64,000 nt of DNA from Candidatus Latescibacterota bacterium (GTDB lineage Bacteria; Latescibacterota; UBA2968; UBA8231), in NCBI GenBank assembly GCA_965223905.1, contig CBDCXV010000011.1, forward strand, positions 704,001 through 768,000, written 5' to 3'. Numbering within the stretch: position 1 is the first letter of the stretch; the number at the start of each line of letters is the position of its first letter. Both the position numbers and the translations under genes were made by a program. Under the pieces are notes generated by a model. That model saw only the letters and a list, made by a program, of their open reading frames with translations. It was not told the DNA's origin and ran no database searches. Of this stretch, positions 34,606 through 51,792 are shown piece by piece.

Positions 34606-36135
34606 ATGAATGTGCGAATGGAAAAGCCAGGGATGGACCCGGAAAAACTACGGGAGTTTCTGTCGCAGCAATACGAGAAAACAGCTGAGCCCTCTCCTCA
34701 TTCGGAACCCGCCGGCAGCGGGGATGGCGAACTGTCTTCTCCACCCGGCGAAAAACTGAACTTCAGCCTCAAGCCGGAGGAACTTATAGCCTATCTCGAT
34801 GAATACGTCGTCAGGCAGGAGAAAGCCAAGGCGATCCTCGCCACCAAGATCTGCACCCACTTCAACCGTCTCAATCTCCCGATCGATGACGAAGAGGTTC
34901 TCGTGGGATCGATAAAGAACAACGTGCTGATGATTGGCCCGACCGGTGTCGGCAAGACCTTCCTTGTCAAGCTGATCGCCCGCCGGCTGGGAGTACCGTT
35001 CGTAAAGGCGGATGCCACGAAGTTTTCCGAAACAGGGTACGTAGGAGGCGACGTCGAAGACCTGGTGCGAGAGCTGGTATCCGAAGCCGACGGCGACATC
35101 GAGCTCGCCGAGCACGGGATCATCTACATCGACGAAATCGACAAGATTGCCTCGACGAGAACGACGGCAGGCCCCGATGTCTCCGGCTCAGGGGTACAGC
35201 GCAACCTTCTGAAGCTGATGGAGGAAACAGAGGTCGATCTGAAAGCCCCGCACGACATCTCGTCGCAGATGGAATCGGTGATTCAGATCCAGAGAACCGG
35301 TAGGGCGGAGCGCAAGAAAATAAATACCCGGAACATCCTTTTCGTCGTCAGTGGGGCTTTCGGTGAACTCCAGGAGATCATCGCGCGACGCCTGAATCGC
35401 GGAGCCATGGGCTTTCGACTCCGTGACACGCGCGCCCCGGCGGAGGACGCCGTGGCCGACGGCGAACTGTTTAACGAGGTCCGGGCAGAAGACCTGATCG
35501 ATTTTGGATTCGAATCGGAGTTCATCGGACGCCTTCCCGTCGTTGCCGTGCTCCATAGCCTGGACTGCAATGACCTTCTCGAAATCCTCAGGGGGGAGAA
35601 CAGCAGCGTCATACTGTCGAAAAGGCGGGATTTCAAAGCCTACGGAATCGATCTCGATTTCACCGACGAGGCCTTTCAGAAACTGGCGGAAATGGCTTTC
35701 GAAGAGCAGATCGGGGCACGCGGGCTGGTCAGCGTGGTCGAGAAAGTCCTGCTTCGCTTCGAAACCCGGCTGCCTTCTACGGACCTCGAGTCATTCACCG
35801 TGACCGAACGCACCGTCTTCGATCCCGAGGGTGAATTGAAATCCATGCTTGTAGATACCAGCCTGCAAAGCTTTTCTGCGAAGTTCTCGTGCGACTACGG
35901 TATTCGCCTGAGTTTTTCCGGGGAGGCCGTCGAAGCGGTAAAGAAAATCGCCAGAGAACAGGGCCGGTTGCCTGGCGAGGTTTGCGCCGAGCTCCTTTCG
36001 GACTACGGCCACGGCCTGCAGCTGCTGGAATTGAAGCAATTCGAAATCACCCCGAAGGTGCTCTCCCGGCCGCAGGAGGTTCTGAACCAGCTTATCAAGG
36101 ACCTGTACAGTCCGGCTGCAACCGGGGATCCCTGA
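34606..36135 (+). CDS. ClpX-like AAA+ ATPase without the N-terminal Zn domain, with a C-terminal extension
   Basis: GPTGVGKT, DATKFSETGYVG.DVE, IDEIDK, GVQ..LLK, EFIGRLP. Confidence 0.85.
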   Translation: MNVRMEKPGMDPEKLREFLSQQYEKTAEPSPHSEPAGSGDGELSSPPGEKLNFSLKPEELIAYLDEYVVRQEKAKAILATKICTHFNRLNLPIDDEEVLVGSIKNNVLMIGPTGVGKTFLVKLIARRLGVPFVKADATKFSETGYVGGDVEDLVRELVSEADGDIELAEHGIIYIDEIDKIASTRTTAGPDVSGSGVQRNLLKLMEETEVDLKAPHDISSQMESVIQIQRTGRAERKKINTRNILFVVSGAFGELQEIIARRLNRGAMGFRLRDTRAPAEDAVADGELFNEVRAEDLIDFGFESEFIGRLPVVAVLHSLDCNDLLEILRGENSSVILSKRRDFKAYGIDLDFTDEAFQKLAEMAFEEQIGARGLVSVVEKVLLRFETRLPSTDLESFTVTERTVFDPEGELKSMLVDTSLQSFSAKFSCDYGIRLSFSGEAVEAVKKIAREQGRLPGEVCAELLSDYGHGLQLLELKQFEITPKVLSRPQEVLNQLIKDLYSPAATGDP

Positions 36136-36158
36136 AACGGAGATGGTCGGTCTTCCGG

Positions 36159-37646
36159 CTACGACCGCTTCCGGGTGAGAAGCCGGGCGGACTTGCCGGC
36201 AGGCGGCCCCGGGCCCTCGCTCCCGGTTCGGTGGCGTGATTTACCACGGCCCTTCAGTCCGTATTCTTTCTCTTTTCTGTACAGCGTGCTGAGGCCGATC
36301 CCGAGCACCGCGGCGGCTTGGCGCCGGTCGTAGCCGACTGCTTCCAGGGTGTCGGCAATCGCCTGCTTTTCGATCTCCTTCATCGTCATCCCGGCCTTTA
36401 CGAAAACAGCCGGCCTTCCCCCGGGGTTCCTTATGTGGTCGGGAACGTCCTCAATGTCGAGCCTGCGGTCGGAGGTTCGCATGACGAGCATCCCCTCTAT
36501 GCAGTTCTTCAGCTCCCTTACGTTGCCGGGCCAGTCGTATTGCCCCAGACAGTCGACTGCCGCCGGAGTCATGCCGACCGCCCTTTGCCGGTTCTCCTCG
36601 GCGAATTCGCGAATGAACTCGTCGATCAGGATGGGGATGTCCTCGCGGCTTTGCCGAATTGGCGGAACCTCGATGCTGATCACGTTCAGCCGGTAGAACA
36701 GATCTGCCCGATACTCCCCATCGGAGACCATCGTTTCCAGGTCGCGATTGGTGGCGGCCACCAGGCGGACATCGACTTTGCGCGTCTCCACGCCACCTAC
36801 CCGTTCGAATTCCGAATCCTGTACGACGCGGAGCAGCTTGACCTGCGTCGGCATCGTCAAGTCCCCGACTTCGTCGAGAAAGAGGGTGCCTCCGTCGGCA
36901 AGCTCGAAGCGACCCTTGCGGGAGGCCGAGGCGCCGGTGAACGCCCCCTTCTCGTGGCCGAACAACTCGCTCTCGACGATCGCTTCGGGAAGGGCGCCGC
37001 AATTGGTCTCGACGAAGGGGCGATCGCGGCGATTGCTGTGCTGGTGGATGGCTTTAGCCAGTTCGCCCTTGCCGGTTCCTGTTTCTCCCAGCAGAAGGAC
37101 CGTGGCTTTCGAGGGAGCGACCTGCTCGATCTGGCTGTATATCCGCTGCCACATAGAGGAGCGGCGCACCACCCCCCCGAAGCGGTAGCGCCTGTCGAGA
37201 CGGCGATGGAGATCGTAGACCTCGTCGACGAGGCGCTGGTGCGAGAGACCCCTTCTCAGGACGGCGTTGATCTTGGCGAGAATGAGCGGGCGGACCTGGA
37301 AATCGTACGCCCCTTGCCGCATCGCCTCGGTGCCGAGTTCGATCCCCTCGGGGGTCGTGTTGGCGACCGCTATCGAACAGATCTCGGCATTGCGCTGCAG
37401 GGAGAGTTGAACGAGCCGTAACCCATCTACCCGCTCGGCCTGGAGATCGCAGATCAGTCCATCGACGCCCTCCGTATCGAGGATGTCGTAAGCCGACTGA
37501 CTCTCGCGGGCCCACAGCACCTCGTACCCTTCCTCCTTCAGAAAGGCGACCAAGTGCCTGGTCTCGTCGGTTTCCCCCAGGACGACGAGGACGCGCGCCT
37601 GCACGGCAGAACCGAGCGCATGCGGAATGGTGTGATCTGTTGCCAT
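36159..37646 (-). CDS. Sigma54-dependent response regulator (NtrC family)
   Basis: Receiver domain, GETGTGK, GAFTGA, WPGNVREL, Fis-type HTH. Confidence 0.92.
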   Translation of the reverse strand: MATDHTIPHALGSAVQARVLVVLGETDETRHLVAFLKEEGYEVLWARESQSAYDILDTEGVDGLICDLQAERVDGLRLVQLSLQRNAEICSIAVANTTPEGIELGTEAMRQGAYDFQVRPLILAKINAVLRRGLSHQRLVDEVYDLHRRLDRRYRFGGVVRRSSMWQRIYSQIEQVAPSKATVLLLGETGTGKGELAKAIHQHSNRRDRPFVETNCGALPEAIVESELFGHEKGAFTGASASRKGRFELADGGTLFLDEVGDLTMPTQVKLLRVVQDSEFERVGGVETRKVDVRLVAATNRDLETMVSDGEYRADLFYRLNVISIEVPPIRQSREDIPILIDEFIREFAEENRQRAVGMTPAAVDCLGQYDWPGNVRELKNCIEGMLVMRTSDRRLDIEDVPDHIRNPGGRPAVFVKAGMTMKEIEKQAIADTLEAVGYDRRQAAAVLGIGLSTLYRKEKEYGLKGRGKSRHRTGSEGPGPPAGKSARLLTRKRS

Positions 37647-37762
37647 CTCAAGGGGACGAGGTATCGAAGTTTCCTCGCACCTTTCCGAATGTCTTATTCC
37701 GTCGCCTCGAACGCCATCACCTGTCAGCTGAGCAACGTCGTCTGGCAGCCCGGTTCCCGGGC

Positions 37763-38596
37763 TCATGCCGGCGTCAGGTGAGCGATCGTTTCGCAATGGG
37801 GTGTCTGGGGAAAGAGGTCGATCGGCTGAAGGGACGGTACTCGAAACCCGCCTTCGCAGAGAACCCTCGCGTCAGCGGCCAGGGACGTTGGGTTGCAGGA
37901 GACGTAACCGAGGGACGGGGGTCTCATTCCGATCAGGGCCCGCAGCACCGACTTGTAGATTCCCGCGCGTGGGGGGTCCGCGATCACGAGATCGAATCTC
38001 CTGTTTTCCGCCATCAGGACGGCGATCACCTTCTCAACACGGCCCGCCCTGAAGGTGCAGTTTCCCCCCGTTCCGTTCTTTTCGGCGTTTCTGCGGGCGT
38101 CGGCAACCGCCTCCTCGACCTGCTCGATTCAAATCACCCTGTCGGCCCGTTTTGCCAGGTGAAGGCTGATGCCTCCTGTCCCGCAGTAGAGGTCGAGGAC
38201 AGTGGCGCCGGTCAGATCACCCGCCAGCGCCAACGATCTGCTCGTACAGAACCGCTGCCTGACCGGTGTTGGTCTGGAAGAAGGCCGCTGAAATCTCGAA
38301 CCCGATCCCTCCGCAGACTTCCGAGATCCTGCCGCTTCCCTTGAGAACGAACTCCCGTTCTCCGATGGCGGCCTGGGCCTTTCCCCGGTGCAGGGTCACG
38401 ACAAAAGTCGTTATCTCCGGAACCCTTTCCAGGACACAGCGAACCAGGTCTCCGACTCCCTTGTCCGGGTACTCTGAGACAACCAGGTTCACCATCACCT
38501 CGCCGGGATTCCTGCCTTCCCGGACCACGCACGGTATCGAGAAGATCCGGTTCGACAGCTGCGACTGGAGACGGCAGTCGAGCACGTCGAAAATCC
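37763..38596 (-). pseudogene. rlmD: 3' part of 23S rRNA m5U methyltransferase (RlmD/RumA family), frameshifted with an in-frame stop
   Basis: FFQTN, DLYCGTG, DPPRAG, YVSCNP and FPQTPH motifs across a frameshift; TGA after RVI. Confidence 0.88.
38589..38596. repeat. Left 8-bp target site duplication GAAAATCC
   Basis: Identical to 46545-46552; each copy abuts a TIR. Confidence 0.92.
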
Positions 38597-38630
38597 GGTA
38601 GTACGTCAGTTTGAAATCGAGTTATCCACA
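38597..38630 (+). repeat. Left TIR GGTAGTACGTCAGTTTGAAATCGAGTTATCCACA, ending in a DnaA box
   Basis: 29/34 identical to the reverse complement of 46511-46544. Confidence 0.92.
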
Positions 38631-38671
38631 CCCCAGGAAGTGTAGTATTTACAGTAACATACCTTCCTTAA

Positions 38672-38754
38672 GGGGGCGCGGAGTCCTTGGGAGGATGGAT
38701 TGGTCTTGACTCCGTCCATCCTGTGTGCCAAGGGTCAAGATACTCCGCGCCCCC
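38672..38754 (+). ncRNA. Putative structured RNA motif, copy 1
   Basis: Perfect 13-, 6- and 8-bp nested stems plus 7-nt loop/junction complementarity. Confidence 0.5.
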
Positions 38755-38775
38755 AGCATTTCGGGGGACAAGGGA

Positions 38776-38845
38776 GCAGGGCCGGTTGTGTGGGAGCGAG
38801 CAGTCCGATGCAGCTCGCTCCGATAAACCATCGGATTGGCCCTGC
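38776..38845 (+). ncRNA. Putative structured RNA motif, copy 2 (same topology)
   Basis: 8-, 4- and 9-bp nested stems plus TCCGATG/CATCGGA pairing. Confidence 0.5.
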
Positions 38846-38893
38846 CCCCCACTTGACATTGCCAGCTTGCGCCTCCAACCACAGGAGGCAGAT

Positions 38894-39160
38894 ATGGAAA
38901 GCGGAAAGCTCAAACCAGGATGGCAGGAGGGCATCAAGAAGCTGATCGCAGAAGCAGACCGGCAGGAGGAACTAACTCCGGGTGACGGGGAGGATTTGAG
39001 AGGTGCCCCCCCCGCCTCCACGGGATTCGAGAGCGGCGATCCGGGAAACAGCGGATTCAAGGTCATTTCGGAGAGAACGGAGCGTCTTTTCAAACAACTG
39101 GAGCTGGGCTTCGAGCGCATCAATGCTCTCCGCAAGGCCAGGGGGCTCCCACCCGTCTAA
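38894..39160 (+). CDS. Hypothetical 88-aa protein
   Basis: AGGAGG RBS and upstream TTGACA (38853); overlaps an antisense ORF. Confidence 0.5.
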   Translation: MESGKLKPGWQEGIKKLIAEADRQEELTPGDGEDLRGAPPASTGFESGDPGNSGFKVISERTERLFKQLELGFERINALRKARGLPPV

Positions 39161-39286
39161 GCGCATCAGTTTCTCCAGCTTTTGGGTTGCCTCTTCCACC
39201 TTAAGTGAGTTAGTGACAGGGGTGTTCAGATACTTTTGAAGCCTCTGTATTTCCTTGTCGAACTGCGCCATCGTGATTTTCTCCAA
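38972..39286 (-). CDS. Hypothetical coiled-coil protein
   Basis: Heptad pattern LAESIDALEAQLQLFEKTLRSLRNDLESAVSRIAALE; directly follows the upstream ORF. Confidence 0.5.
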   Translation of the reverse strand: MEKITMAQFDKEIQRLQKYLNTPVTNSLKVEEATQKLEKLMRLDGWEPPGLAESIDALEAQLQLFEKTLRSLRNDLESAVSRIAALESRGGGGGTSQILPVTRS

Positions 39287-39290
39287 AGGG

Positions 39291-39587
39291 TTAGGCGGTG
39301 GCGATTTGCGGCCCCTGGCTGTTACGAGCAGCCGGGGCCGTGTCTATGTTCAGCATTTTTTTCAATTTCATATCTGTCTGTTTGTAATCTTGCACGGCAG
39401 ATCCATCTGCAATTGAGCCCGGCAGAGCTATTGGTATAGGGCTCCACTTGCCGCCACTGGTCCGATAGTCCCACATGGTTCCATCATCGCAAATCACGAT
39501 GTAGGAGCCATCAAAATGTCCACGCACCATTGCTACAGGCTTTCTGGGTTCCGGAACTGGGACTTCTTGTTGACTATCGTCACACAC
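39291..39587 (-). CDS. Hypothetical protein, translationally coupled to the transposase
   Basis: Overlaps the transposase stop; ICDDGTMW...W.P.P motif. Confidence 0.55.
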   Translation of the reverse strand: MCDDSQQEVPVPEPRKPVAMVRGHFDGSYIVICDDGTMWDYRTSGGKWSPIPIALPGSIADGSAVQDYKQTDMKLKKMLNIDTAPAARNSQGPQIATA

Positions 39588-40470
39588 TTTCCTTCTCCAT
39601 TTTCCGGTAGGTTTTGGGACGATCTGGCTTGGGAGCCCTGTAGTCGATCAGGTCCAAGATCCAGCCTATGTCGTAGGGCCATTCGAAGATACCGGCTTTC
39701 ATGGCCGGGGTTTTTCCGTCCAAGCTCATGTGAGGGCGGATGAAGTTGTAGTACAGGAAGTAGAGGCTGCACATGTGAACGTGGTTCTGGAACTTCTTGC
39801 TGAATCCGTTGGTGCTTCGAGTGAACCGCCTCATTCCCATTCGCATGGTGAGGTTCTGACGTTCGACATGTGAGGTAGTGATGTGCTTGGGATCAGGATC
39901 ACCCTTTATCACCGATTTTTCGCTAGTGACTTCGATGGGGAGGGTAAATTTCCCATCTGGAGTATTCGTCGGATACTTGAAAGATTTCACAAGCTGGCTG
40001 TAGTCTACGAAGTTGCCGAAAGCCTTATCTACGGACTCTTGATAGGACCCCAAACCGTCAGTGGTCAGTTGCACTCGATAGGCAAGTCGACTCTGGAGGT
40101 CCTTCATGAACTTCTCGCCGGTTTCAATGGTGCGATCCCCGATCTGGTAAGAGACGATCAACTTACTTTTGGGATCTATGGCAGTCCAGGTCCAGATGTC
40201 CCCGGCAAAGGGAGGGGGATTCTTGGCCGTTTCGACGTTCTTCTTCTTGGCGTAGCAGAAAGCCCATATCTCATCGCACTGAATGCGCTTCGCCCTGACC
40301 ATGCGGACATTCCGGTCATGGAACTCGGCAGCGGCTTCTCCAGCGTCAACGAGCAGCTTCTTGACGGTGTTGAAGGAGCATCGGACAAGGCGGGCAGTGG
40401 CCTGCATCGAGTTGCCTTCTACTAGAAGATTCAGGACTTGCTCACGGTCTGACCTTGGGAGGGTTTTCAT
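39580..40470 (-). CDS. IS1-family DDE transposase (single ORF, HTH + DDE)
   Basis: LLVEGNSM.ATARL HTH; QCDEIW, TTDG and VERQN triad; RRFTR.TNGFSKK; YNF.RPH; TPAM.AG. Confidence 0.92.
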   Translation of the reverse strand: MKTLPRSDREQVLNLLVEGNSMQATARLVRCSFNTVKKLLVDAGEAAAEFHDRNVRMVRAKRIQCDEIWAFCYAKKKNVETAKNPPPFAGDIWTWTAIDPKSKLIVSYQIGDRTIETGEKFMKDLQSRLAYRVQLTTDGLGSYQESVDKAFGNFVDYSQLVKSFKYPTNTPDGKFTLPIEVTSEKSVIKGDPDPKHITTSHVERQNLTMRMGMRRFTRSTNGFSKKFQNHVHMCSLYFLYYNFIRPHMSLDGKTPAMKAGIFEWPYDIGWILDLIDYRAPKPDRPKTYRKMEKESV

Positions 40471-40510
40471 GCTTGCACAGTTCCTTCTTTGGGAGGGATT
40501 TCATACAAAT

Positions 40511-40539
40511 ATAGTACGAAAAAAACCGTGCAAAATCAA
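40511..40539 (-). promoter_or_regulatory. Putative sigma70 promoter of the transposase
   Basis: TTGATT-17 bp-TACTAT. Confidence 0.55.
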
Positions 40540-40569
40540 CGTAATCCAGTTAAAAAACAACTATTTATG

Positions 40570-40605
40570 GCTTCAATGAGGCCGGGGTCCGAAGACCCCG
40601 GAAAG
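40570..40605 (-). CRISPR. Solo 36-bp CRISPR-like repeat resembling type I-G (I-U): CTTTCCGGGGTCTTCGGACCCCGGCCTCATTGAAGC
   Basis: 8-bp hairpin and 3' GGCCTCATTGAAGC end; no second copy and no cas genes seen; TATAAT at 40630-40625. Confidence 0.7.
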
Positions 40606-40758
40606 GCAATGGCAAGGAAAGGATATTATATACAATCTTACCCACGGAGACTGGTAAAGCCTACCGCTTCCGTCCTGATTCCTCCAGGTAGCATGTCATC
40701 TCCCTTCGCGAGCCCGATCCCTCACTCGCCTTCATCTAGGATCAGACCAAGCATTTGT

Positions 40759-40995
40759 CTACTCGCATCGAGCTTTGCAGGTATCGGCAGCTTTACCGGA
40801 CCGGGCAATACAGGCTCTCTTGTCACTGTCCCAAAACCGGGAAAAGCATACCGGTATACTGTCCTCGTAATCCTGCTGGCAATAACTGATACACCGCGCC
40901 TTAGCCTCTTCTGCGGAACAGGAGCTGGCAGGATTGGAACGGCTGCATCCATAGACCAACACAGCGGCCGCGATCAACAGCAGTGCGGGTGTCAT
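40759..40995 (-). CDS. Small Cys-rich lipoprotein
   Basis: AGGAGG RBS; lipobox VYG-C; CxxxC motifs. Confidence 0.65.
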   Translation of the reverse strand: MTPALLLIAAAVLVYGCSRSNPASSCSAEEAKARCISYCQQDYEDSIPVCFSRFWDSDKRACIARSGKAADTCKARCE

Positions 40996-41037
40996 GCGAC
41001 CTCCTTGGTCAGCTGTCGGAAGCGTCTACGGCGGGGG

Positions 41038-41370
41038 TCAGTCACCGTACAAAATCGAAGGGTGGCCCCACTTTAGATCCCATCCTTTCGCGCCGACGAT
41101 ATAGCGGTGGAAAGAAACGCCCGGATCGGTTTTCGTAGCTGCTTGTAGATCATCAGCTTGGTTCTGCTCGTTGGGTGAATCCATAGTATCGACTTCAACG
41201 ATCCATATTTTGCCGTCCTTGTAGGCGACTATATCGGGAATTCTACCGTTGATAGATTTCGGAGTTGGATGCGTATCTATGTGGTCAGCTTCAACATCAC
41301 AACCTGCTTGCTCAAAAACCTCGACGATTTTGTCCACAGCCAAGTTGTGGACTGTCTGTTCCCATGCCAT
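41038..41370 (-). CDS. Small PD-(D/E)xK-fold nuclease-like protein
   Basis: IPDIVAYKDGKIWIVEVDT; AAGGAG RBS; TACAAT at 41470-41465. Confidence 0.6.
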   Translation of the reverse strand: MAWEQTVHNLAVDKIVEVFEQAGCDVEADHIDTHPTPKSINGRIPDIVAYKDGKIWIVEVDTMDSPNEQNQADDLQAATKTDPGVSFHRYIVGAKGWDLKWGHPSILYGD

Positions 41371-41487
41371 TCTGAAATCTCCTTTTCGGTCTGCATCAGA
41401 GTAAGGCACACCTGATGCCAGCTCATCGCAAGGCCGTAACTCCCTGTTTCCAGGGAGACCAAGCATTGTATCAGCAGCTTTCTATTG

Positions 41488-41679
41488 TCACTGTTCCATT
41501 TCTATGCGACTACTGTAAGGACTCCCCCACAGGCATACCGAGAGTAGAACCCAGATATACCAGTGACCGCTTGTGTGCTTCGGAGGATATTGCCGGCTGT
41601 AGGTGCGGTAGAGGTTCCACCACCCAACCGCTAAGGGGATCGTCAAGGCCAAGAGAAATGCACCTACATCCTTTCCCAT
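41488..41679 (-). CDS. Small 2-TM protein
   Basis: Two hydrophobic segments. Confidence 0.5.
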   Translation of the reverse strand: MGKDVGAFLLALTIPLAVGWWNLYRTYSRQYPPKHTSGHWYIWVLLSVCLWGSPYSSRIEMEQ

Positions 41680-41698
41680 TTAACTACCGTTGGTTTTG

Positions 41699-41923
41699 TT
41701 ATGATTTTCCGTTTTGTTCATCATTGCGGTCGAGTTCTGATCCTACTTTGTTTCCCGCCAGTAACCCCAGTGCTCCCACTATCGCCCCTAGGGGAATCGT
41801 CGCCGGCGCAGCCCAGCCACCTGTAGCGATACCTATACCAGCCCCGATCTTGGCTCCAATAGCAGCGCCAGCGGCTGCTCCGCCTGCTGTTCCAACCAAT
41901 TCCTTTTTCCTTTTCTTCTTCAT
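41699..41923 (-). CDS. Glycine-zipper small membrane protein
   Basis: Basic N-terminus followed by GxxxG repeats; AGGAG RBS. Confidence 0.65.
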   Translation of the reverse strand: MKKKRKKELVGTAGGAAAGAAIGAKIGAGIGIATGGWAAPATIPLGAIVGALGLLAGNKVGSELDRNDEQNGKS

Positions 41924-42037
41924 GTCCTGTCTCCTTTTTCTGTCTCTGCCAAAAAAAAGACCGCGCCGGGGTCTAACCTATCGCACCGAACTCCCCCGAA
42001 GCGGTTGGCGGCGAATCTCGCCGCACGAAAAATTCCG

Positions 42038-42217
42038 TTACTTCTTTTTCCGACCCGAGCCGGATTTGCGGCCAGACTTCGGCTGATCCTCTTTAGCAGA
42101 GGTCCCGGTCACCGGGACCCTTACGTCTTCCTCTTCCCCGGTGGCGATGCGGCACACCTGCACCGCCAGTGCAATGGGGCTGGACGGTCGAACTTCGCCG
42201 TTAGGTCCTATGGGCAT
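42038..42217 (-). CDS. Small basic protein of the MPxGPxGExRP...RIATGE type, recalled as accompanying this IS1 clade
   Basis: MPIGPNGEVRP..IALAVQVCRIATGEEE with K/G-rich tail; RBS and TTGACA upstream. Confidence 0.65.
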   Translation of the reverse strand: MPIGPNGEVRPSSPIALAVQVCRIATGEEEDVRVPVTGTSAKEDQPKSGRKSGSGRKKK

Positions 42218-42303
42218 GATGCCATCCTTTCCGTTAAGGTGTAACGAACGATGCGGCATCGGATTGGGAATGTCAAGCTAATACTTCGATAATCATAGAG
42301 GGA

Positions 42304-42588
42304 TCACGGCGGAAAATCCGCGAGGGCTGCCCGGCGATTGGATAGGCTTTCTTCTCGGACGTCCTCAGCCCTCAGCGGTGCGTTCATGCGTTCCCGCAAG
42401 GCGGCTCCCAAGGCGGAAAGGGTGCGTTCCCGGTCGCCTTTGCGCAGAAGAGCGTGCAAAACCTCTTCGTTTGGCTTCGGGGATCGCAGTTCATCGGAAA
42501 TGGCCTTCGGCAGGGCTTCCTTCGCTCGGCCTTGTTGCCTTTGGGGTTCCATCCAGTTTGACGGTTTTGGCACGGGGTGTTCAGTCAT
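42304..42588 (-). CDS. Hypothetical protein
   Basis: AGGAG RBS; ATGA overlap with the upstream ORF. Confidence 0.5.
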   Translation of the reverse strand: MTEHPVPKPSNWMEPQRQQGRAKEALPKAISDELRSPKPNEEVLHALLRKGDRERTLSALGAALRERMNAPLRAEDVREESLSNRRAALADFPP

Positions 42589-42839
42589 TTCTCCTGGTCA
42601 AAGGCAGTGTGGTATCTTTTTGTCAGCAGAACCACGTCCTTGAATGTGGGGAATATGAACCGTTTCGCCCGGCTATCTCCAGTAGCTGTCCAGCGGTTGA
42701 TTTCGAACCTGTTGCTCTCCCGGGATTTCAGGTGGTCGCCGTCCGGGTCCTGTGCGTGCGCTTGGAGTTGCAGGCCGACTTGGATGAGGTCGTGAGCCAT
42801 TTCGAGTAGTTCAGCCCGTAGGTCTTCCGCGTCAGACAT
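42585..42839 (-). CDS. Hypothetical protein
   Basis: ORF in the co-oriented run of micro-genes. Confidence 0.45.
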   Translation of the reverse strand: MSDAEDLRAELLEMAHDLIQVGLQLQAHAQDPDGDHLKSRESNRFEINRWTATGDSRAKRFIFPTFKDVVLLTKRYHTAFDQEK

Positions 42840-42897
42840 TGGATTCTGTTCCCCTGTTCAGGTTTATTGGCCGTGCCGGGGGTCTGAGACAATACCG

Positions 42898-43149
42898 TTA
42901 CTTCGGATGGTTCTCCAAATGCTCGACGTGGTATTGCCGTAACTCCGTCAACTGGCCTTTGATTTCCGTAAGAGTTTGATCCGTGTTATTCTGACTGGCC
43001 TTGATCCGCTTGCCAATGGCCTTATGGGCTTTGTTGTTAGTTTTGTTGGTCGTCTTCAGCTCGCTTTTCAGGTTGTTGCGCAGTGCTGCATACAGGGCCA
43101 CAACAGCCAAGACAATGGTCCCAACGGCAATCCAGATTTCGGAAGTCAT
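42898..43149 (-). CDS. Small N-terminal TM + coiled-coil protein
   Basis: Hydrophobic N-terminus, heptads, C-terminal HLENHPK. Confidence 0.65.
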   Translation of the reverse strand: MTSEIWIAVGTIVLAVVALYAALRNNLKSELKTTNKTNNKAHKAIGKRIKASQNNTDQTLTEIKGQLTELRQYHVEHLENHPK

Positions 43150-43184
43150 GGGAGGGTCCTTCGTTGGGTTGGTTCAAAATTTCT

Positions 43185-43532
43185 TCACGTACCGGAGGTT
43201 CGGTCCCTGATTCGGTTCTTTGTCCTTCTATTGGCCCAAATGGACAATCCTGACAGCCCGCCACAGGCCAAGCCGAATAATCCCAAAAGAATCGCGCCCC
43301 CCCTAGATCCATGAGGAGTTACAAGAAGCGTCACCGAGGCGCCAAATGAAGCCGTGGCAATACCGATGCAGAACGTTCCCATCCACCCTATGGTTTCGAG
43401 ACCTTCGACCTCTTCTTCGGTCAGGGAATACATTCTAAGCGTTCTCGTTTCTTGGATGACATTGACGTTGTTAGCGGAGGATGGTGAAATCTCACCTCCG
43501 CCGCCCTTTTCAGACACTGAGTTCTTGCTCAT
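43185..43532 (-). CDS. Small 2-TM protein
   Basis: Two TM segments and a basic tail; overlaps the Zn-ribbon ORF. Confidence 0.55.
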   Translation of the reverse strand: MSKNSVSEKGGGGEISPSSANNVNVIQETRTLRMYSLTEEEVEGLETIGWMGTFCIGIATASFGASVTLLVTPHGSRGGAILLGLFGLACGGLSGLSIWANRRTKNRIRDRTSGT

Positions 43533-43824
43533 GCTTTGAGTCGGAAATGGGTTTTCCCAGATTTTTAATCCCCATCACGACGGCACTGAAAATCCTGGTA
43601 AATCCACACTTCCCGCAATGGAGCAAGATGGCGGGGAAGCACACCCTTCCATGGGGGGACTGTGTTGTCCCGAGCGACGTAAGGCTCATTAAATGTGTAT
43701 TAATGAACCACCTGTTACTACGACATTGGGAACAATTGGGACTTATCCCATTGTCTTCCATCCATTCGTGTATTCTATCTATATCTTCTTCCGTTAGCTT
43801 ACCATCAGCCTCGGGCATTCTCAA
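43510..43824 (-). CDS. Zn-ribbon protein
   Basis: CSQC...CGKCGF; AAGGAGG RBS. Confidence 0.65.
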   Translation of the reverse strand: MRMPEADGKLTEEDIDRIHEWMEDNGISPNCSQCRSNRWFINTHLMSLTSLGTTQSPHGRVCFPAILLHCGKCGFTRIFSAVVMGIKNLGKPISDSKHEQELSV

Positions 43825-43879
43825 GCCTCCTTAGATGACCTTACGATGATCTTACAATGATCTCATTTCGCCGTTCTCC

Positions 43880-44017
43880 TCACTCCACTCCTGTTCTGCC
43901 ATCCAGGTGGCGGTCGAGGCGGTCGTTGTGACGGTCGATTCGGCTTCCAATGTCTCGCCAAAAGGCACCCAGAGCTGCCAGTACCACGAGCATGGGAATG
44001 ATTTCCGTCCAAGTCAC
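43880..44017 (-). CDS. 45-aa TM + coil microprotein (MTWTEIIPMLVVLAALGAFWRDIGSRIDRHNDRLDRHLDGRTGVE), not in the ORF track
   Basis: GTG start after GAAGGAGG; hand translation. Confidence 0.6.
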   Translation of the reverse strand: MTWTEIIPMLVVLAALGAFWRDIGSRIDRHNDRLDRHLDGRTGVE

Positions 44018-44039
44018 CTTGGGCCTCCTTCAGGAGGGA

Positions 44040-44309
44040 TCAGCTGCCGTTGACGGGTCCGGGAGTGGGGCATGGATCGAGCCGGCCTTCCACTCTATAC
44101 AACCCCTTTTCCACATAGTCAAGGCGCACATCGATGCGGGCCAGAGCCTTGCCCTGAGCAGACAGTTCCTACTGCATGGCGTTCATCCGGGTGTCCATCA
44201 GGTCCATTCTGGAACTCAGGCTGGAGCTGAATCCCCACTGGCTGCCGATGATGGCAACCAGAAGTCCCAAGAGCACCAGAACGTCCTTCCAGTTCAGTCT
44301 GCCGTTCAT
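44040..44309 (-). pseudogene. TM + coiled-coil microprotein with an internal TAG (44171-44169)
   Basis: MNGRLNWKDVLVLLGLLVAII...RMNAMQ*ELSAQGKALARIDVRLDYVE; heptads continue past the stop. Confidence 0.55.
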
Positions 44310-44573
44310 CTTGGGCCTCCTTCAGGATAGGTGGTCTCCCACCGCTACCCTGAATTTCTCGCCATGAATAGGGAATGTCAAGCCAAAAACCGCTTGTGGA
44401 CGCCCGTGGGGTACTGTAAGGTATGAGCCGTCCGCTTCTCTACACGCAGGATCCGACTGAGGTCGGGTCTCCTGCTGAATGCAATAGCCAGTAGTAGAAC
44501 CCGGCCAAGGGGTCGCACCCCGAGGCAAGGCGAATAGGCAGGACTTTCCCGCGCGTTCCTGCGTGTCAGGGAG

Positions 44574-45335
44574 GTGGACAAGGCCCGGCACCCTTTTTTT
44601 CGGGGTGTCGTGGTGGCCGAAAAGTCCACCTCGAAACGCGGGAAATCGGTCGTGCAACACCCCTCCCAGAAGCATCTCAGTAGCTACAGATCCACCTGTT
44701 CGTCACTGTCTCAAGGGACGGTCCCGGTGTGCCATACCTGGACGGCTGTCCACCGGAAGGGGTTTGTCCACTCCTTCTTGCGGGAATGCCGTAGGCCGGG
44801 ACCGCTCTGCTTTTTTCTGTCGTGTCTGGTGCTGATCGGTTGCGCCAGAGACAGCAGCACCACTCCTGAATCTGCCCCCCCTGCGGAGTCAGTCTCCAGA
44901 CCAGATCCAGACGATCTGGACCTTTGGAGCTACGGTTACAACAGCAGCCAAAGGGTGCACATCTTGAGACACACCGCCACCTCAGAAGGGGTGGACTGCA
45001 CGATGTGGATTGAATGCAGGGGGACTCCCAGCTTCCCGGACTTGTATTTCTGGATTCCCAGAGGAGACTTCAATGGTTGGGGAGGCACACCTGGATACGA
45101 TGGGGATTGGCCAGATCAACCGGTCATAAACCTGACATGGGGAGAAGAAAATCCAGAACCTACCAAGATGAATTTGAGCAAGAACACCTTCACTTTTCAG
45201 GACCGGAAATGGAAGGACAAGATGATGTCGAACGACATCCTGTTGATGGAATTGCCGTGGGAACAATACGGCTCACTGTATTTCTATTTCGATCTCAGAG
45301 AAGGAAGACAACTCCTCAGCTACCACTGCTTATGA
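44574..45335 (+). CDS. Hypothetical lipoprotein (true start probably near 44780)
   Basis: Hydrophobic stretch with lipobox LIG-C, P/S-rich linker and a globular domain. Confidence 0.55.
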   Translation: MDKARHPFFRGVVVAEKSTSKRGKSVVQHPSQKHLSSYRSTCSSLSQGTVPVCHTWTAVHRKGFVHSFLRECRRPGPLCFFLSCLVLIGCARDSSTTPESAPPAESVSRPDPDDLDLWSYGYNSSQRVHILRHTATSEGVDCTMWIECRGTPSFPDLYFWIPRGDFNGWGGTPGYDGDWPDQPVINLTWGEENPEPTKMNLSKNTFTFQDRKWKDKMMSNDILLMELPWEQYGSLYFYFDLREGRQLLSYHCL

Positions 45336-45368
45336 ACCACATCCATACCCCTCCCAAGGAGCAACTCG

Positions 45369-45524
45369 ATGACGCTTGCCAGTGAGCTGGTGAAGAAGCT
45401 GGAAGAAGAGCTGTCAGAGACTCAGAAAAAGCTCAAAGCAGAAGAGCAGAAGTCAGACAAATGGAAGAAGAAGGCAGGCGATAGATGGCAAGAGATTGAA
45501 CGTATGAAACGCAACTCGGGTTGA
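45369..45524 (+). CDS. 51-aa charged coiled-coil microprotein (MTLASELVKKLEEELSETQKKLK...), not in the ORF track
   Basis: AAGGAG RBS; hand translation. Confidence 0.5.
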   Translation: MTLASELVKKLEEELSETQKKLKAEEQKSDKWKKKAGDRWQEIERMKRNSG

Positions 45525-45525
45525 C

Positions 45526-45783
45526 TCAATCTATCAGCAGACCGCAGCATTGAATTACAAAACCGAGGACCAAAACAGATACTCCGACCTTTGCTCTTCG
45601 AGAATCCTTGAGCAGTTGCTGGACCATTGGGAGCTTCATGTGGTCTTCCCTTGTCTCTCCTACCCATCGTGAAACTCCAAGCTCGATGGCCTTATCCCTG
45701 GACATGATAATGCCTGAACCCAAAATCACAGCTCCAACAATGTCCATCAGGAGACCAGCTACCTGAATTGATTCAGTAGACAT
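45526..45783 (-). CDS. Small 2-TM protein
   Basis: GLLMDIVGAVIL ... GVSVLVLGFVIQ. Confidence 0.6.
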   Translation of the reverse strand: MSTESIQVAGLLMDIVGAVILGSGIIMSRDKAIELGVSRWVGETREDHMKLPMVQQLLKDSRRAKVGVSVLVLGFVIQCCGLLID

Positions 45784-45784
45784 G

Positions 45785-45979
45785 TCAACCGGTCTTCTGT
45801 TTGGGGTCGAAGTGGATTTCCTGCTTGTCCGTGGAGAGGAAGAGCTGGTCGAGGTACCGCAGTCTGGTGTTCACGGTAGGCGAGGGAGGCACCTGCACCT
45901 TGCCGGCATGAGACAGATCGGTCCGGGAGGTGTGAGCTTCCCGGTCGGTCAGGGCGACGATGTATTTCAGTCGGGCCAT
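45785..45979 (-). CDS. Hypothetical microprotein
   Basis: Co-oriented and abutting its neighbours. Confidence 0.35.
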   Translation of the reverse strand: MARLKYIVALTDREAHTSRTDLSHAGKVQVPPSPTVNTRLRYLDQLFLSTDKQEIHFDPKQKTG

Positions 45980-46476
45980 AGCAAGTGCTCCGGGAGTAGG
46001 ATGTAGACCGGTTCCTGATTCCAGAAATCGCCTAAGCCTGCAGCCATGTGGGCTTCCATAAGGGTACGAATACCTGTGGCAAGTTCGATATCCAGTGTGG
46101 GGTTGGCCAGAGATTCTCGACGCATATGGGCCATATGGCGCTCATGAGCTGAACGTCCCAAGAGAGGGGGGCAGGTCGACTTTTCGGCGTCGGATGTCTT
46201 CTTTCTTTGCTCGTCGTTTCAAGTCTGAGTAATTCCGTCCAGATTGGTGTTGATTTTTTTTCTCAGAATGGTATTTTTCAAGTGCCATTAGGCACTCCTT
46301 TCTTGAGAGGGAAGGAAACGAAAGCAAGGGACTGGAGATAGCCTATGCCAAGGCTTTCGGTCCCTTCTTTCATTTTGGGGTCAAAACGTCATCATGCTGG
46401 GCAATATACGTACTTTGTTCCCAAATCTCCAGGTTCAGCCACGGAATGTCCAGGACGAATCAGATATCCCTAAAAA

Positions 46477-46489
46477 AATCAACCATTTA
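46477..46489 (+). promoter_or_regulatory. IHF-consensus site AATCAACCATTTA near the right end
   Basis: Matches WATCAANNNNTTR exactly, with an upstream A-tract. Confidence 0.5.
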
Positions 46490-46510
46490 CCTACTGTTTG
46501 TGGATAGAAT

Positions 46511-46544
46511 TGTGGATAACCCAGGTTCAGACTGACGTACTACC
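46511..46544 (-). repeat. Right TIR, containing a DnaA box
   Basis: Reverse complement GGTAGTACGTCAGTCTGAACCTGGGTTATCCACA. Confidence 0.92.
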
Positions 46545-47006
46545 GAAAATCCGGTTGTAGCGACCGCGGTGGTGCAACCCCAGCAACGTGCCGCCTCCGC
46601 AATCCCTGCCGAAGAACTCCATCTTGTTGCGGTAGAAAAACGGGGCGCGACTCGCAATAATCGGCCTTTGCTCGTCGCAACGGAGACCCTGTTGCTCCAG
46701 TGCATTTTGCAACCATCCGTTCCTTCAATCGCAACTGGTCGCCGTAACGGAGGTCCTACCAGCGGCACCCGCCGCACCCCGAAGTTAGGGCATTCGGAGG
46801 CTACCCGGGGGATCGGGGTGCTCGTTATGCGGTCCGCAGTCGCCTCCCAGATTCTCCCTTTCCTCCTGCGCACGGTTCGCTTCCACACGATCCCCGGGCA
46901 GCGTCCGGCGAACGATGAACTCCGAGTCGTCGATCCTGGCCCAGCCGTCACCCTGGGCCGTTAACTCGCGGATATCTAGCTCAATCCTGTCTCCGCGTCT
47001 TGGCAC
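46545..47006 (-). pseudogene. rlmD: 5' part of rlmD (TRAM domain and Fe-S motif), frameshifted; 46545-46552 is the right TSD
   Basis: LPGDRV; CPNFG then CGGCRW* in another frame; YRNKMEF. Confidence 0.88.
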
Positions 47007-47053
47007 TGGCCGAAACCGTTACGGTGCTGAATGATGGTGAACCGAGGTACATG

Positions 47054-47111
47054 AAAAAGCGAGGCGCACGAGATGATGCCATTTTCACCATCAAAAGCGC
47101 GCCTCGCCTTT
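47054..47111 (-). terminator. Possible intrinsic terminator after rplQ
   Basis: GCGAGGCGC/GCGCCTCGC stem followed by a T-run; large loop. Confidence 0.45.
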
Positions 47112-47161
47112 CGGTTGAGGGAGTGGACGCTCCCGGCCGGGTGGTTCACCCAGGGTCGTCC

Positions 47162-47581
47162 CTATTCTTCTTTCTTTTCCGTTTCCTGACTCGCGGTTGG
47201 ACCTGACGCCGGAGCACGGCTACCTGGCCTGTCGACCAACTCGATTATGCACATCTCGGCACCATCGCCACGCCTCGGCTCACCCTTGACAATCCGTGTG
47301 TACCCGCCGCTGCGGTTGGAGTAGCGCGGACCGATCTCGTCGAAAAGCTTTGCCACTATGCGCTTGTTGGCTATTGTGCGCAGCACCTGGCGACGCGCAT
47401 GCAGATCGCCCCTTTTGGCAAAGGTGATCAGACTCTCGGCGGTTCGCCTCAGTTCCTTCGCTCTCGCCGTTGTTGTATGGATAGCCTCGTGTTCGATCAA
47501 AGAGGTGACCATGTTGCCGAGCATCGCCTTGAGATGACTGCGATCGCGGCTCAGCCTGGCCTTTTTGTTCCTGTGTACCAT
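47162..47581 (-). CDS. rplQ: 50S ribosomal protein L17
   Basis: GGYTRI, RRGDGA motifs. Confidence 0.96.
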
Positions 47582-47648
47582 TGCTTTTTCGTGGGATCCG
47601 TGGTCACGCCTCGTCCGACCACGACGAACCGGTTCGGGATGAGTTGCG

Positions 47649-48662
47649 TCATTCCTCCGCCAAGGCGCTTTCGGGCTCCTCGTCCAGCTCGACGTCCTCG
47701 AAGCGCGAGATGTCCATGCCCCACGCCAAATTCATTTCGTCGAGGATTTCGCCCAACTCGTTGAGCGACTTGCGCCCGAAGTTGCGAAACTTGAGCATCT
47801 CCGCTTCACTGCGCGAAACGAGTTCGCGAAGATTCGTAATCCCCGCGGCCCGGAGACAGTTTGCCGATCGCACCGACAGTTCGAGGTCGTCAACCGGCAT
47901 GGCGAGCAGCTTGGCAATGTGCTTTACCTGGTCATCGACTTCCCTCTCCGGATCGGGCACCGGTTCAGTCTGGAAATTTGCGATGAGATCCAAATGCTCG
48001 ATCAGAATCCTCGCGGCCTGCGCCATGGCGTCTTCCGGCCGCAGGGAACCGTCCGTCCACACCTGCAGATTGAGCCGGTCAAAGTCGGTGCGACGGCCGA
48101 CGCGAGCGTGCTCGATGTCGTAATTGACCTTTAGAACGGGGGAGAAGTTTGCGTCCATCGGAATGGTTCCGATCGGCTGTTCCGGAAGCTTGTTCTCCTC
48201 GGCGAACACGTAGCCACGCCCCCTGCCGACCGCTACCTCCATCTTCAGGTGTACCTCTTTGCCGAGGGTTGCGATGTGGAGATCCGGATTCAACACCTCG
48301 ACCGCGGAATCGACCGTAAGGTCCCCGGCGACCAACTCCCTCGGCCCCTTGGCCTCGATTTGCAAAACACGGTCCTCTTCTCCGTGGTAGCGGATGGCGA
48401 CCTCCTTGAGATTCAGCACGATCTCCGGCAGGTCTTCGCGAACTCCCTTGACCATGGAGAACTCATGCTGCACGCCCTCGACGCTTACCGACTTGATGGC
48501 GGCCCCCTGAATTGAGGATACGAGGACGCGTCTGATCGCGTGTCCCACGGTCACGCCGAATCCGCGCTCCAACGGCTGCATCGTAAACGAGCCGTAGGTG
48601 TCGGTAAGCGTGTCCTTGTCGACTTCAACGAGACGCGGCATCTGAAGACCATCTAATGCCAT
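47649..48662 (-). CDS. rpoA: RNA polymerase alpha subunit
   Basis: PLERGFG.T.G, LELSVRS.NCL, NFGRKSL. Confidence 0.97.
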
Positions 48663-48754
48663 ATGGCTACTGACCCCCGGTTTGGTTTGGTTGTGAAAAG
48701 ATGGACGCTGTTTCGGCCACGAACTTGGTTCGCCCCGAAATCCGCTTCCGTCAA

Positions 48755-49381: not shown

Positions 49382-49413
49382 GTGAGTTCAGCCTTTCGCT
49401 CGTTTCGGTTACC

Positions 49414-49806
49414 TCACACGCGCCGCCGCTTTGGCGGCCGGCAACCATTGTGGGGAATCGGAGTGACGTCCCGAATCGCGGAGACCTCCAATCCCGCGTT
49501 CTGTAAAGCCCGAATCGCCGAATCGCGGCCCACTCCCGGACCCTTTACCCAGGCCTCAACCCGACGCAGCCCCATGTTGATAGCCTCTTGGGCCGCTCGC
49601 TCGGCCGCCAGCTGACCGGCGAACGGGGTCGACTTCCTGCTGCCTCGGATGCCGACCTTCCCGGGGGTCGCCCAGGAAATGACGTTGCCCTCAACGTCGG
49701 TCAGAGTGACGATGGTGTTGTTGAAGGTTGAGAATATGTGGGCTATTCCCAGCGCCTCGACCTTTTTCGACTTCTTGCGCCGCCGTCTCGCTTTTTCAGG
49801 TGGCAT
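49414..49806 (-). CDS. rpsK: 30S ribosomal protein S11
   Basis: [18 protein letters not shown]. Confidence 0.97.
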
Positions 49807-49877
49807 TCGGTATCCCTTTGAAGGCAGTCAACTTCGGTTCGAAGGAGCCCTCGGTGTGATTTCGCCCCGCGAGGGAC

Positions 49878-50258: not shown

Positions 50259-50292
50259 GATCTCTCTCTCTCTCCTTGCAAGCTCTCCCAGC

Positions 50293-50409: not shown

Positions 50410-50440
50410 TTCTCTACCTCTACCTCCGGCGGTTCTCGCC

Positions 50441-51790: not shown

Positions 51791-51792
51791 GT

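Follow-up and report, generated by a model that had tools for sequence, protein, structure and literature searches.

Stable structured RNAs are known from transposons, examples being RNA-OUT of IS10 and the fold-back inhibition of read-through. Regulators of the IS10 type are either antisense to the 5' end of the transposase mRNA or part of it. Type III antitoxins (ToxI, CptI and TenpI) are near-identical repeats of about 34-45 nt, which are pseudoknotted and processed by an adjacent endoribonuclease toxin; the toxin is about 170 aa or longer. REP/BIME sequences and MITEs are present in many copies per genome. Insertion sequences of the IS3 family have apical loop-internal loop (ALIL) pseudoknots (Mazauric et al. 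2008, as cited in PMC5009743 and PMC4993456). In IS3411, according to PMC5009743, the apical loop of one stem-loop pairs with the internal loop of a second stem-loop located 44-104 nt downstream. The same source describes the loop-to-internal-loop pairing of the IS3 family as stimulating frameshifting, and such pseudoknots are an established RNA device in insertion sequences.

Two adjacent hairpins, each with an apical loop complementary to its own 3' bulge, were identified in a 64,000-nt stretch of DNA from Candidatus Latescibacterota bacterium (the window, to which all positions refer). The sequence-only reading of the window had described two tandem folds of the same topology, and all of its helix and loop/complement coordinates were confirmed in the sequence of both copies (Table 1). 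Each copy consists of the helices P1, P2 and P3 together with a loop-complementary 3' bulge at the equivalent place.

Table 1. Positions of the hairpins, the neighbouring genes and the ends of the host transposon in the window.
Feature	Position	Strand	Description
Left target-site duplication GAAAATCC	38589..38596		direct repeat; 8 bp, 9 bp including the preceding C
Left terminal inverted repeat	38597..38630	+	transposon end downstream of the transposase gene
Hairpin 1	38672..38754	+	P1 13 bp, P2 6 bp, P3 8 bp
Hairpin 1, P1	38672-84/38742-54		13 bp, 100% complementary; also recovered by inverted-repeat search
Hairpin 1, P2	38685-90/38728-33
Hairpin 1, P3	38692-99/38715-22
Hairpin 1, loop TCTTGAC	38704-10		complement GTCAAGA at 38734-40 (3' bulge)
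Hairpin 2	38776..38845	+	P1 8 bp, P2 4 bp, P3 9 bp
Hairpin 2, P1	38776-83/38838-45		8 bp; extendable to 38772-38849
Hairpin 2, P2	38784-87/38826-29
Hairpin 2, P3	38793-801/38813-21
Hairpin 2, loop TCCGATG	38804-10		complement CATCGGA at 38829-35 (3' bulge)
Small hairpin GCCTCC/GGAGGC	38872..38890	+	6 bp, 7-nt loop; would sequester the AGGAGG ribosome-binding site of orf88
orf88	38894..39160	+	small conserved gene, directly downstream of the hairpins
orf104	38972..39274	-	conserved; convergent with orf88, about 190 nt antisense overlap
orf98	39291..39587	-	between orf104 and the transposase gene; 8-nt overlap with the end of the transposase gene
IS1-family DDE transposase	39580..40470	-	single ORF, 296 aa; Pfam DDE_Tnp_IS1, E 1.7e-9
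Right terminal inverted repeat	46511..46544	-	matches the left end at 85%
Right target-site duplication	46545..46552		direct repeat of 8-9 bp

Hairpin 1 is 83 nt and hairpin 2 is 70 nt long, with a spacing of 21 nt between them. The P2/P3 junction of hairpin 1 is an internal loop of 1 x 5 nt, its apical loop comprises 15 nt and the bulge between P2' and P1' comprises 8 nt. Hairpin 2 has an apical loop of 11 nt and an 8-nt bulge placed equivalently to that of hairpin 1. In both hairpins, seven loop bases are the exact complement of the bulge bases immediately 3' of P2', and in hairpin 2 the first base of the bulge sequence CATCGGA is shared with P2' (an overlap of 1 nt). The loop/bulge helix can be extended on the plus strand by one pair in hairpin 1 (G38703.U38741) and by two pairs in hairpin 2 (G38803.U38836 and A38802-U38837). 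Loop/bulge duplex energies were -7.5 kcal/mol for hairpin 1 and -9.1 kcal/mol for hairpin 2.

The twin hairpin architecture is real, non-random and unannotated. The plus strand of 38660-38860 (201 nt) folded with -105.9 kcal/mol, compared to -78.9 +/- 4.8 kcal/mol for shuffled sequences (z -5.68), and the minus strand with -99.9 kcal/mol (z -5.24). None of the 200 shuffles was as good on either strand. The sequence-only reading had named comparable pairing in shuffled controls as evidence against the folds, and the result obtained favours them. In a sliding 100-nt scan of 38300-46900, the hairpin region was the most extreme structure of the whole transposon in which it lies. The complementarity between loop and bulge was evaluated by shuffling the letters 40,000 times with the composition kept, which is a conservative null. 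At least seven contiguous complementary bases were obtained with a probability of 0.000625 for hairpin 1 and 0.0019 for hairpin 2, corresponding to a joint probability of about 1e-6 for both hairpins.

A descriptor of the architecture was also used, with minimum lengths of 8 bp for P1, 4 bp for P2 and 7 bp for P3 and with the requirement of a loop k-mer that has its reverse complement in the 3' bulge; two mock pairing rules (reverse and complement) served as controls. With k=6, exactly the two hairpins were found on the plus strand of the 64-kb window, and none on the minus strand or with the mock rules. With k=7, five sites were found on both strands of the whole 7.9-Mb genome, compared to one and zero with the mock rules. 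The scan with k=7 does not recover hairpin 2, owing to the 1 nt that its bulge sequence shares with P2'. The other four genome sites are at the minimum thresholds and their minimum free energy (MFE) folds are without the architecture. On 905 kb of IS1-related loci, the descriptor gave one site, compared to two and one with the mock rules. Taken together, the shuffling and descriptor results indicate that two high-quality instances 21 nt apart are not due to chance, and the architecture has essentially no counterpart elsewhere in the window or the genome.

The host element is an IS1-family transposon with a DDE transposase, terminal inverted repeats, a target duplication and an empty site. It is 7,948 bp long (38597-46544) and single-copy in the genome. 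The 35-nt inverted repeats (38596-38630/46511-46545) are 86% complementary, and the inverted-repeat 19-mer is found in the window only at 38597-38615 (plus strand) and 46526-46544 (minus strand), compared to zero occurrences expected by chance. Hairpin 1 starts 42 nt inward of the left inverted repeat, in agreement with the earlier placement of the folds just inside this end. The element interrupts an rlmD/TrmA-like methyltransferase gene on the minus strand, the C-terminal part of which is located at about 37763-38600 (PF05958), with a weak TRAM match at 46878-46997. An empty insertion site was seen in contigs of three other sequencing runs, which cover 38456-38603; past the 38603 region, the loose end of the contig from run X10 continues with the letters of 46560-46583. 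The stretch was present only in runs X1 and X2, the probable source sample. Runs X3, X4, X5 and X10 had zero cover of 38622-38917; X5 and X10 are RNA libraries, and this result is uninformative on expression. The element has a GC content of about 0.50-0.55, lower than the value of about 0.62 in its flanks, which makes a foreign origin of the element probable.

The transposase matched the NCBIfam model transpos_IS1 with E 6.7e-19, a score under the cut-off of the model, and 401 relatives with identities of about 50-57% were found. Related elements share the inverted-repeat sequence. In IS1 relatives, the inverted repeat is located within about 8-20 nt past the end of the transposase gene (six of 80 loci with a recognisable repeat), whereas 949 nt separate the two in the present element and hold orf98, the orf88/orf104 pair and the hairpins. 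This difference assigns the hairpins to the cargo rather than to the transposition machinery. The other cargo ORFs gave zero family matches in Pfam, NCBIfam, PHROG and PADLOC, and orf98 likewise had no family match in these collections. None of the host CRISPR spacers matches the element, and no tRNA or tmRNA was found in 36000-48000. An Rfam scan of 38500-46600 gave a match to a CRISPR repeat model at 40570-40607, the only notable match in the element. No paper naming both ISMhu11 and the IS1 family was found in the literature searched.

Homologs of the two conserved genes next to the hairpins were found outside the element. For orf88 these were P0002 (E 3e-12) and proteins encoded at the loci L094, L101-L103 and L105, and for orf104 they were P0003 (E 2e-17), P0004 (E 2e-15) and proteins at L094 and L101-L104. 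Both genes occur together in L094 (identical in sequence to L101), L102 and L103; L104 has orf104 alone, and orf88 is frameshifted in L105. In the N-terminal codons of orf88, which are outside orf104, the homologs differ mainly at third positions by synonymous changes. On account of these changes and of the homologs, orf88 is regarded as a real gene. Protein coding through the hairpins was rejected: an in-frame ORF starting with TTG spans 38687-39160, but all homologs begin at the orf88 ATG. ESM Atlas gave no usable lead for the orf88 or orf104 family, and a protein-guided metagenome scan found no relatives of the orf104 family. The AGGAGG site of orf88 is paired in the MFE fold and its hairpin is located 3 nt before the ATG; the spacing between hairpin 2 and the AGGAGG-site hairpin is given as 44 nt.

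The hairpins were absent from all six homologous orf88 loci. In L094/L101, a promoter-like TTGACG-17-TACATT lies upstream of the gene and two direct repeats of 21 nt come after it, and a 24-nt block is common to L094, L102 and L103. L105 has one different hairpin upstream, without loop/bulge complementarity. The hairpins have thus been added in this element specifically, and orf88 does not need them.

The reading we tentatively prefer, possible although short of probable, is that the hairpins are a lineage-specific, structure-only RNA leader on the plus strand, or an insulator, of the cargo gene orf88. The hairpins would be transcribed on the plus strand as the 5' leader of orf88. Each would form a P1-P2-P3 stack, in which the apical loop could pair with its own 8-nt 3' bulge by seven Watson-Crick pairs, or by eight to nine pairs when the plus-strand wobbles are included. 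P3 would have to fold back at the P2/P3 internal loop for this pairing, and a pseudoknot would then lock the hairpin in a compact form. The two copies have the shape in common and almost no sequence, which makes the fold itself the property most likely to have been selected. Such locked hairpins could shield the 5' end of the transcript from decay. Alternatively, they may act as a roadblock, insulating orf88 and its Shine-Dalgarno hairpin from transcription or translation that reads in past the transposon end. For this model we infer that the molecule is RNA, that the plus strand is used, that the pseudoknot forms and that the hairpins have a function.

By analogy, the nearest described device would be the ALIL pseudoknot of IS3-family elements. 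Both are carried by a bacterial insertion sequence and have an apical loop whose pairing partner is an internal loop or bulge 3' of it in a stem, and in both the sequence would be free as long as pairing is kept. ALIL pairing in IS3411 connects two stem-loops, whereas loop and bulge belong to one hairpin here. In the IS3 elements, ALIL also follows a frameshift site that lies between orfA and orfB, whereas the hairpins have no upstream ORF and, on reading, no shift site. The host element is of the IS1 family, its transposase is encoded by a single ORF on the opposite strand, at a distance of about 0.7 kb, and no ALIL match was obtained in the Rfam search. The position that marks an IS3 frameshift pseudoknot is thereby lacking: reading the sequence before each hairpin showed no heptamer of the form needed for a shift, and with the inverted repeat and the target flank on the left, no ORF comes in from that side. 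RNA-OUT of IS10 resembles the hairpins in being a very stable fold beside a transposon end, with stability or masking dependent on the fold. Unlike RNA-OUT, the putative RNA of the hairpins would come from the far end of the element relative to the start of the transposase, where a cargo gene follows.

The sequence-only reading had called the two folds unrelated in sequence, which is nearly right, but the P1 arms have 7 of 13 letters in common and a covariance model of hairpin 1 (R1) recovered hairpin 2 at full length, on the plus strand only, with 24.8 bits and E 7.6e-5 (301 nt). In the R1 alignment, hairpin 2 is matched chiefly at paired positions. The reverse test, with a model of hairpin 2 (R2) on hairpin 1, gave a weak match of 9.4 bits and E 0.044. 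These cross-matches reflect the same handedness and the similar P1 arms, and common descent of the copies is not proven by them. MAFFT misaligns the two hairpins, and the model-guided alignment shifts P2 and the bulge of hairpin 2.

Handedness is identical in the two hairpins, the bulge being on the 3' side of the plus strand in both. All 62 core pairs (27 and 21 nested, 14 between loop and bulge) are Watson-Crick with zero G.U, so both strands fold nearly equally well. The energies were -51.6 kcal/mol (plus strand) and -48.8 kcal/mol (minus strand) for hairpin 1, and -48.2 and -47.8 kcal/mol, respectively, for hairpin 2. The earlier remark on G-U pairs of the plus strand is only partly right: such pairs were found in the loop/bulge extensions and at 38700.38714 and 38790.38824 of the MFE fold, but the minus strand has two as well, at 38846.38775 and 38850.38771. 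The sole consistent asymmetry between the strands is that the loop/bulge helix gains a G.U at the same relative position in both copies on the plus strand only. As the energies are nearly tied and this is the only such asymmetry, the strand assignment leans weakly towards the plus strand and would not be settled by it. An absence of G.U in the core would be unusual for an old RNA; it is equally compatible with a young or DNA-level origin and with selection for maximal stability.

The nearly equal folding of both strands, with Watson-Crick pairs throughout the core, is also what a site acting in DNA would show, either a single-stranded hairpin or cruciform used for recombination, nicking or priming, or two MITE- or REP-like inserts brought from a previous host. 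The probably foreign origin of the element, the likeness of the P1 arms, as in the ends of related small palindromic elements, and the orf88 loci without hairpins, as predicted by an insertion, agree with this. The hairpins further resemble REP and MITE sequences as GC-rich, imperfect and non-coding palindromes of 70-90 bp that fold on both strands. They differ in being single-copy, in having no target duplication flanking either hairpin and in the additional loop/bulge complementarity. The several copies per genome that characterise a MITE/REP-like repeat were not found: each hairpin is single-copy in its own genome by blastn-short, R1 and R2, and neither the 150 other genomes of the phylum nor pattern scans across whole genomes yielded a second copy. 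Protein family searches recognised no HUH/Y1, tyrosine or serine recombinase, relaxase or Rep gene in the element. To our knowledge, IS1-type DDE transposition requires no hairpin, and we know of no DNA site that accounts for the loop/bulge complementarity; both points count against an action in DNA, which we regard as unlikely. An integron attC site was rejected, no integrase being recognised and what we take to be the core sites not being seen at the hairpin feet.

Homologs of the hairpins were searched for in several collections. A DNA search of 38598-38900 against 60 related genomes and the own genome gave matches to the inverted repeat only, and blastn-short of each hairpin against the 7.9-Mb own genome returned the hairpin itself. 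In 151 genomes of the phylum (the own genome and 150 others), R1 gave the window copy and one match with E 0.65, which folds no better than shuffled sequences (z -1.56, 12 of 200 shuffles as good) and is noise. R2 gave the window copy and a partial match with E 0.94 in the same genomes, also noise. On 82 loci (80 with IS1 transposase relatives, L094 and L095; 905,385 bases), R1 had zero matches at E <=10. Blastn searches of plasmid and phage collections and exact-pattern scans of metagenome, genome and viral contigs gave no hairpin homolog. There is consequently no covariation to count in any collection searched, a result that had been named beforehand as speaking against the finding and that does count against it. 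Covarying pairs are seen solely between the tandem hairpins themselves, whose homology is uncertain. As judged from these searches, the hairpins appear to be a singleton.

A singleton is also what palindromes without function would leave, if template switching in replication or some comparable mechanism had produced them and the non-coding spacer of a recently acquired element tolerated them. The element itself is single-copy, perfect Watson-Crick pairing suggests a young origin, and orf88 does without hairpins in other genomes. Against this stands the occurrence, twice side by side in unrelated sequence, of the three-helix layout with a loop-complementary 8-nt bulge, at the joint probability given above, and the mock rules gave just 0-1 matches in the descriptor scans of the window and the genome. 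We know of no mutational process that places a loop complement at that position twice. An absence of function is therefore considered rather improbable.

No named family had been recognised for the folds, and this was borne out by Rfam 15, with zero matches in the window at gathering thresholds. At E <=10 there were seven matches, all to eukaryotic miRNA, snoRNA or lncRNA models and far under the thresholds; the best on the hairpins was a eukaryotic miRNA model with 19.5 bits compared to a threshold of 66. The Rfam scan of 38500-46600 gave nothing on the hairpins. A kink-turn at the P2/P3 junction was rejected, none being apparent on reading by the criteria we take to define it.

A new self-cleaving ribozyme or a tandem riboswitch would be in keeping with a compact, pseudoknot-capable fold that is present in tandem upstream of a gene and followed by a hairpin sequestering the ribosome-binding site. 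The junctions, loop flanks and bulge tails all differ between the copies, no unpaired nucleotides are conserved, no homologs are known from the searches and Rfam ribozyme and riboswitch models gave zero matches even at E <=10. A shared core for catalysis or ligand binding would require conserved unpaired nucleotides, and a tandem of this kind is judged highly improbable. Of the repeated pseudoknot or switch suggested by the sequence-only reading, a repeated, pseudoknot-capable architecture that is not due to chance stands, and the riboswitch part is unsupported. Its further suggestions of an ncRNA, a ribozyme or an RNA antitoxin found no support; no toxin family was recognised next to the hairpins.

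With respect to antitoxins, tandem pseudoknot-capable units followed by a hairpin and a small ORF are a likeness to the type III systems, the layout of which they recall. The units differ from type III antitoxins in length and in their unrelated sequence, and no such toxin was recognised. Two defining features of a type III antitoxin are missing: MAFFT alignment and a repeat search showed no direct sequence repeat between the units, and no ToxN/AbiE-type toxin was found among orf88, orf104, orf98 and the other cargo in Pfam, NCBIfam, PHROG and PADLOC. An antitoxin-like RNA binding the product of orf88 or orf104 is one form of a stand-alone or trans-acting ncRNA; the other form is an antisense regulator of the transposase mRNA. 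Such a regulator would have one seed in the hairpin 1 loop and the other in the hairpin 2 bulge, both masked by their intramolecular partners. The transposase mRNA (minus strand) holds a 9-mer of the hairpin 2 loop (40387-40379) and a 7-mer of the hairpin 1 bulge (40365-40359), which are 13 nt apart and correctly ordered for antiparallel pairing with a plus-strand RNA. Under a first-order Markov null, the probability of both 7-mers occurring within 30 nt anywhere in the other 7.7 kb of the element is 0.009. This coincidence was, however, found post hoc, and the target lies 85-111 nt into the coding region, where the protein sequence constrains the letters. The seeds are just 7-8 bp and would already be engaged within the hairpins, sequence repetition between the two units is lacking, orf88, orf104 and their neighbours matched neither a ToxN/AbiE-type nor another toxin family, and no promoter or terminator bounds a small RNA. 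A stand-alone or trans-acting RNA in either form is accordingly thought improbable. More doubtful still is a self-masked riboregulator of the transposon, in which the plus-strand RNA would pair with the two transposase-mRNA sites and the loop/bulge pseudoknots would hold the seeds in reserve; if this were true, transposase output would be set by the folding state of the RNA.

The hairpins could instead belong to the minus strand, as the 3' end of a transcript of the transposase gene, orf98 and orf104, where they would act as a terminator without a U-tract, as a block to 3' exonucleases, or as both. The three minus-strand genes are tightly packed (read from 40470 to 38972), no other terminator-like site is found between orf104 and the inverted repeat, and the minus-strand fold is nearly as good as that of the plus strand (z -5.24). 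Canonical terminator-like sites were not enriched in 44000-63900 (15 compared to 19.6 +/- 4.4 expected), which suggests that hairpins without a U-tract may be the local norm. On the other hand, neither hairpin is followed by a T-run on the minus strand, the hairpins begin 127 nt past the orf104 stop codon, and the G.U extensions of the loop/bulge helix are confined to the plus strand. A terminator or 3' stabiliser also needs no loop/bulge complementarity. The minus-strand 3' end is held to be rather unlikely. The T-run that directly follows the hairpin of an intrinsic terminator is missing, and zero terminator-like sites were found in 38300-39400 on either strand.

The leader or insulator of orf88 is favoured by the strongest fold of the element, the loop/bulge complementarity at equivalent places, the plus-strand handedness with its G.U extensions, the proximity to the ribosome-binding-site hairpin of orf88, the standing of orf88 as a real gene, the near-uniqueness of the architecture, the position among the cargo and the precedent of ALIL in insertion sequences. 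Evidence against it is the absence of a sigma-70-like promoter in 38300-39400, the absence of homologs, the orf88 relatives without hairpins, the nearly equal energies of the strands and the lack of core G.U, which fits a DNA-level or recent origin.

At present the value of the twin hairpins is that of a lead and not of a result, which merits a bench test and no strong claim. If functional, they would represent a hairpin defined by shape, locked by its own loop/bulge pseudoknot and used twice in tandem, and the module could serve as a portable part for RNA stability or insulation. As cargo of an IS1-family transposon in an uncultured lineage, it would add a structure-only RNA device to the ways in which mobile elements shield or tune genes.

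The IS1-family transposon was delimited by inverted repeats of 35 nt and flanked by a target duplication of 8-9 bp, and its insertion had split an rlmD/TrmA-like methyltransferase gene. The uninterrupted insertion site was present in contigs of three other sequencing runs. The parts of the methyltransferase gene occupy different reading frames and an in-frame TGA lies within its family match; the gene looks decayed beyond the insertion itself. Family matches were absent for most of the approximately 15 cargo ORFs in the transposon. A cargo ORF of 142 aa (41038-41466, - strand) gave, by eye, the impression of a PD-(D/E)XK nuclease-like sequence pattern, a likeness that was not accompanied by any library match.

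Features of the transposon and its insertion site
Feature	Window position	Strand	Remark
IS1-family transposon	38597-46544		7,948 bp, single-copy
Interrupted methyltransferase gene	37763-38631 and 46527-47006	-	
orf88/orf104 pair	38894-39274	+ (orf88), - (orf104)	convergent, antisense overlap
Seed-like sites in transposase mRNA	40359-40387		transposase codons about 29-37
Third, degenerate inverted-repeat motif copy	40512-40548	+	inside the transposon
Solitary CRISPR repeat	40570-40607	-	Rfam CRISPR-DR16

The internal copy of the inverted-repeat motif kept both conserved blocks, with a spacing 7 nt wider, and has the orientation of the left inverted repeat. The inverted-repeat pattern, which was designed after the repeats had been seen, gave no chance matches in 100 shuffles. 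The internal copy may be the relic of a second element end.

The transposase mRNA was found to contain a 9-mer matching the loop of hairpin 2 and a 7-mer matching the bulge of hairpin 1, the two tandem folds inside the left inverted repeat. The two sites are separated by 13 nt, and their order is compatible with antiparallel pairing to a + strand hairpin RNA. Under a Markov null the coincidence of both sites had a P of 0.009, for an observation made post hoc.

The CRISPR repeat is on the strand of the transposase gene, about 100 nt before the start of that gene, and it matched its Rfam family with 30.2 bits (E 6e-4), which is under the threshold of 35. No second CRISPR repeat followed it. The host has a single CRISPR array, with 14 repeats (G000:C10:90931-92852); the repeat in the transposon differed from these at two positions, and one of the two changes puts a G-C pair in place of an A.C mismatch in the repeat stem. 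Host CRISPR spacers did not match the transposon. PMC10651486 describes RNA anti-CRISPRs that consist of solitary repeat units, and the repeat in the transposon resembles these. At the host CRISPR locus (G000:C10:90511-93548) a lone repeat was seen about 1 kb upstream of the 13-repeat array, and the locus is flanked by a segment of about 150 nt, present in three copies, that looks like the end of a gene.

Both genes, orf88 and orf104, have conserved counterparts in other members of the phylum (loci L094 and L101-L105), and DNA identity to L094 was about 80% in the overlapped stretch (window 39122-39306). Upstream of the orf88 homolog, in L094 (5352-5440) and the identical L101, a promoter-like TTGACG-17-TACATT precedes two direct repeats of 21 nt, both of which contain the palindrome GGGATCCC. 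A 24-nt block upstream of the orf88 homologs was common to L094, L102 and L103. These upstream features may represent an operator and an element end; the window contained neither the upstream elements of L094/L101 nor the 24-nt block. In L102 the gene pair is located directly after an IS1595-type transposase gene, so insertion sequences may recurrently carry orf88/orf104 as a passenger.
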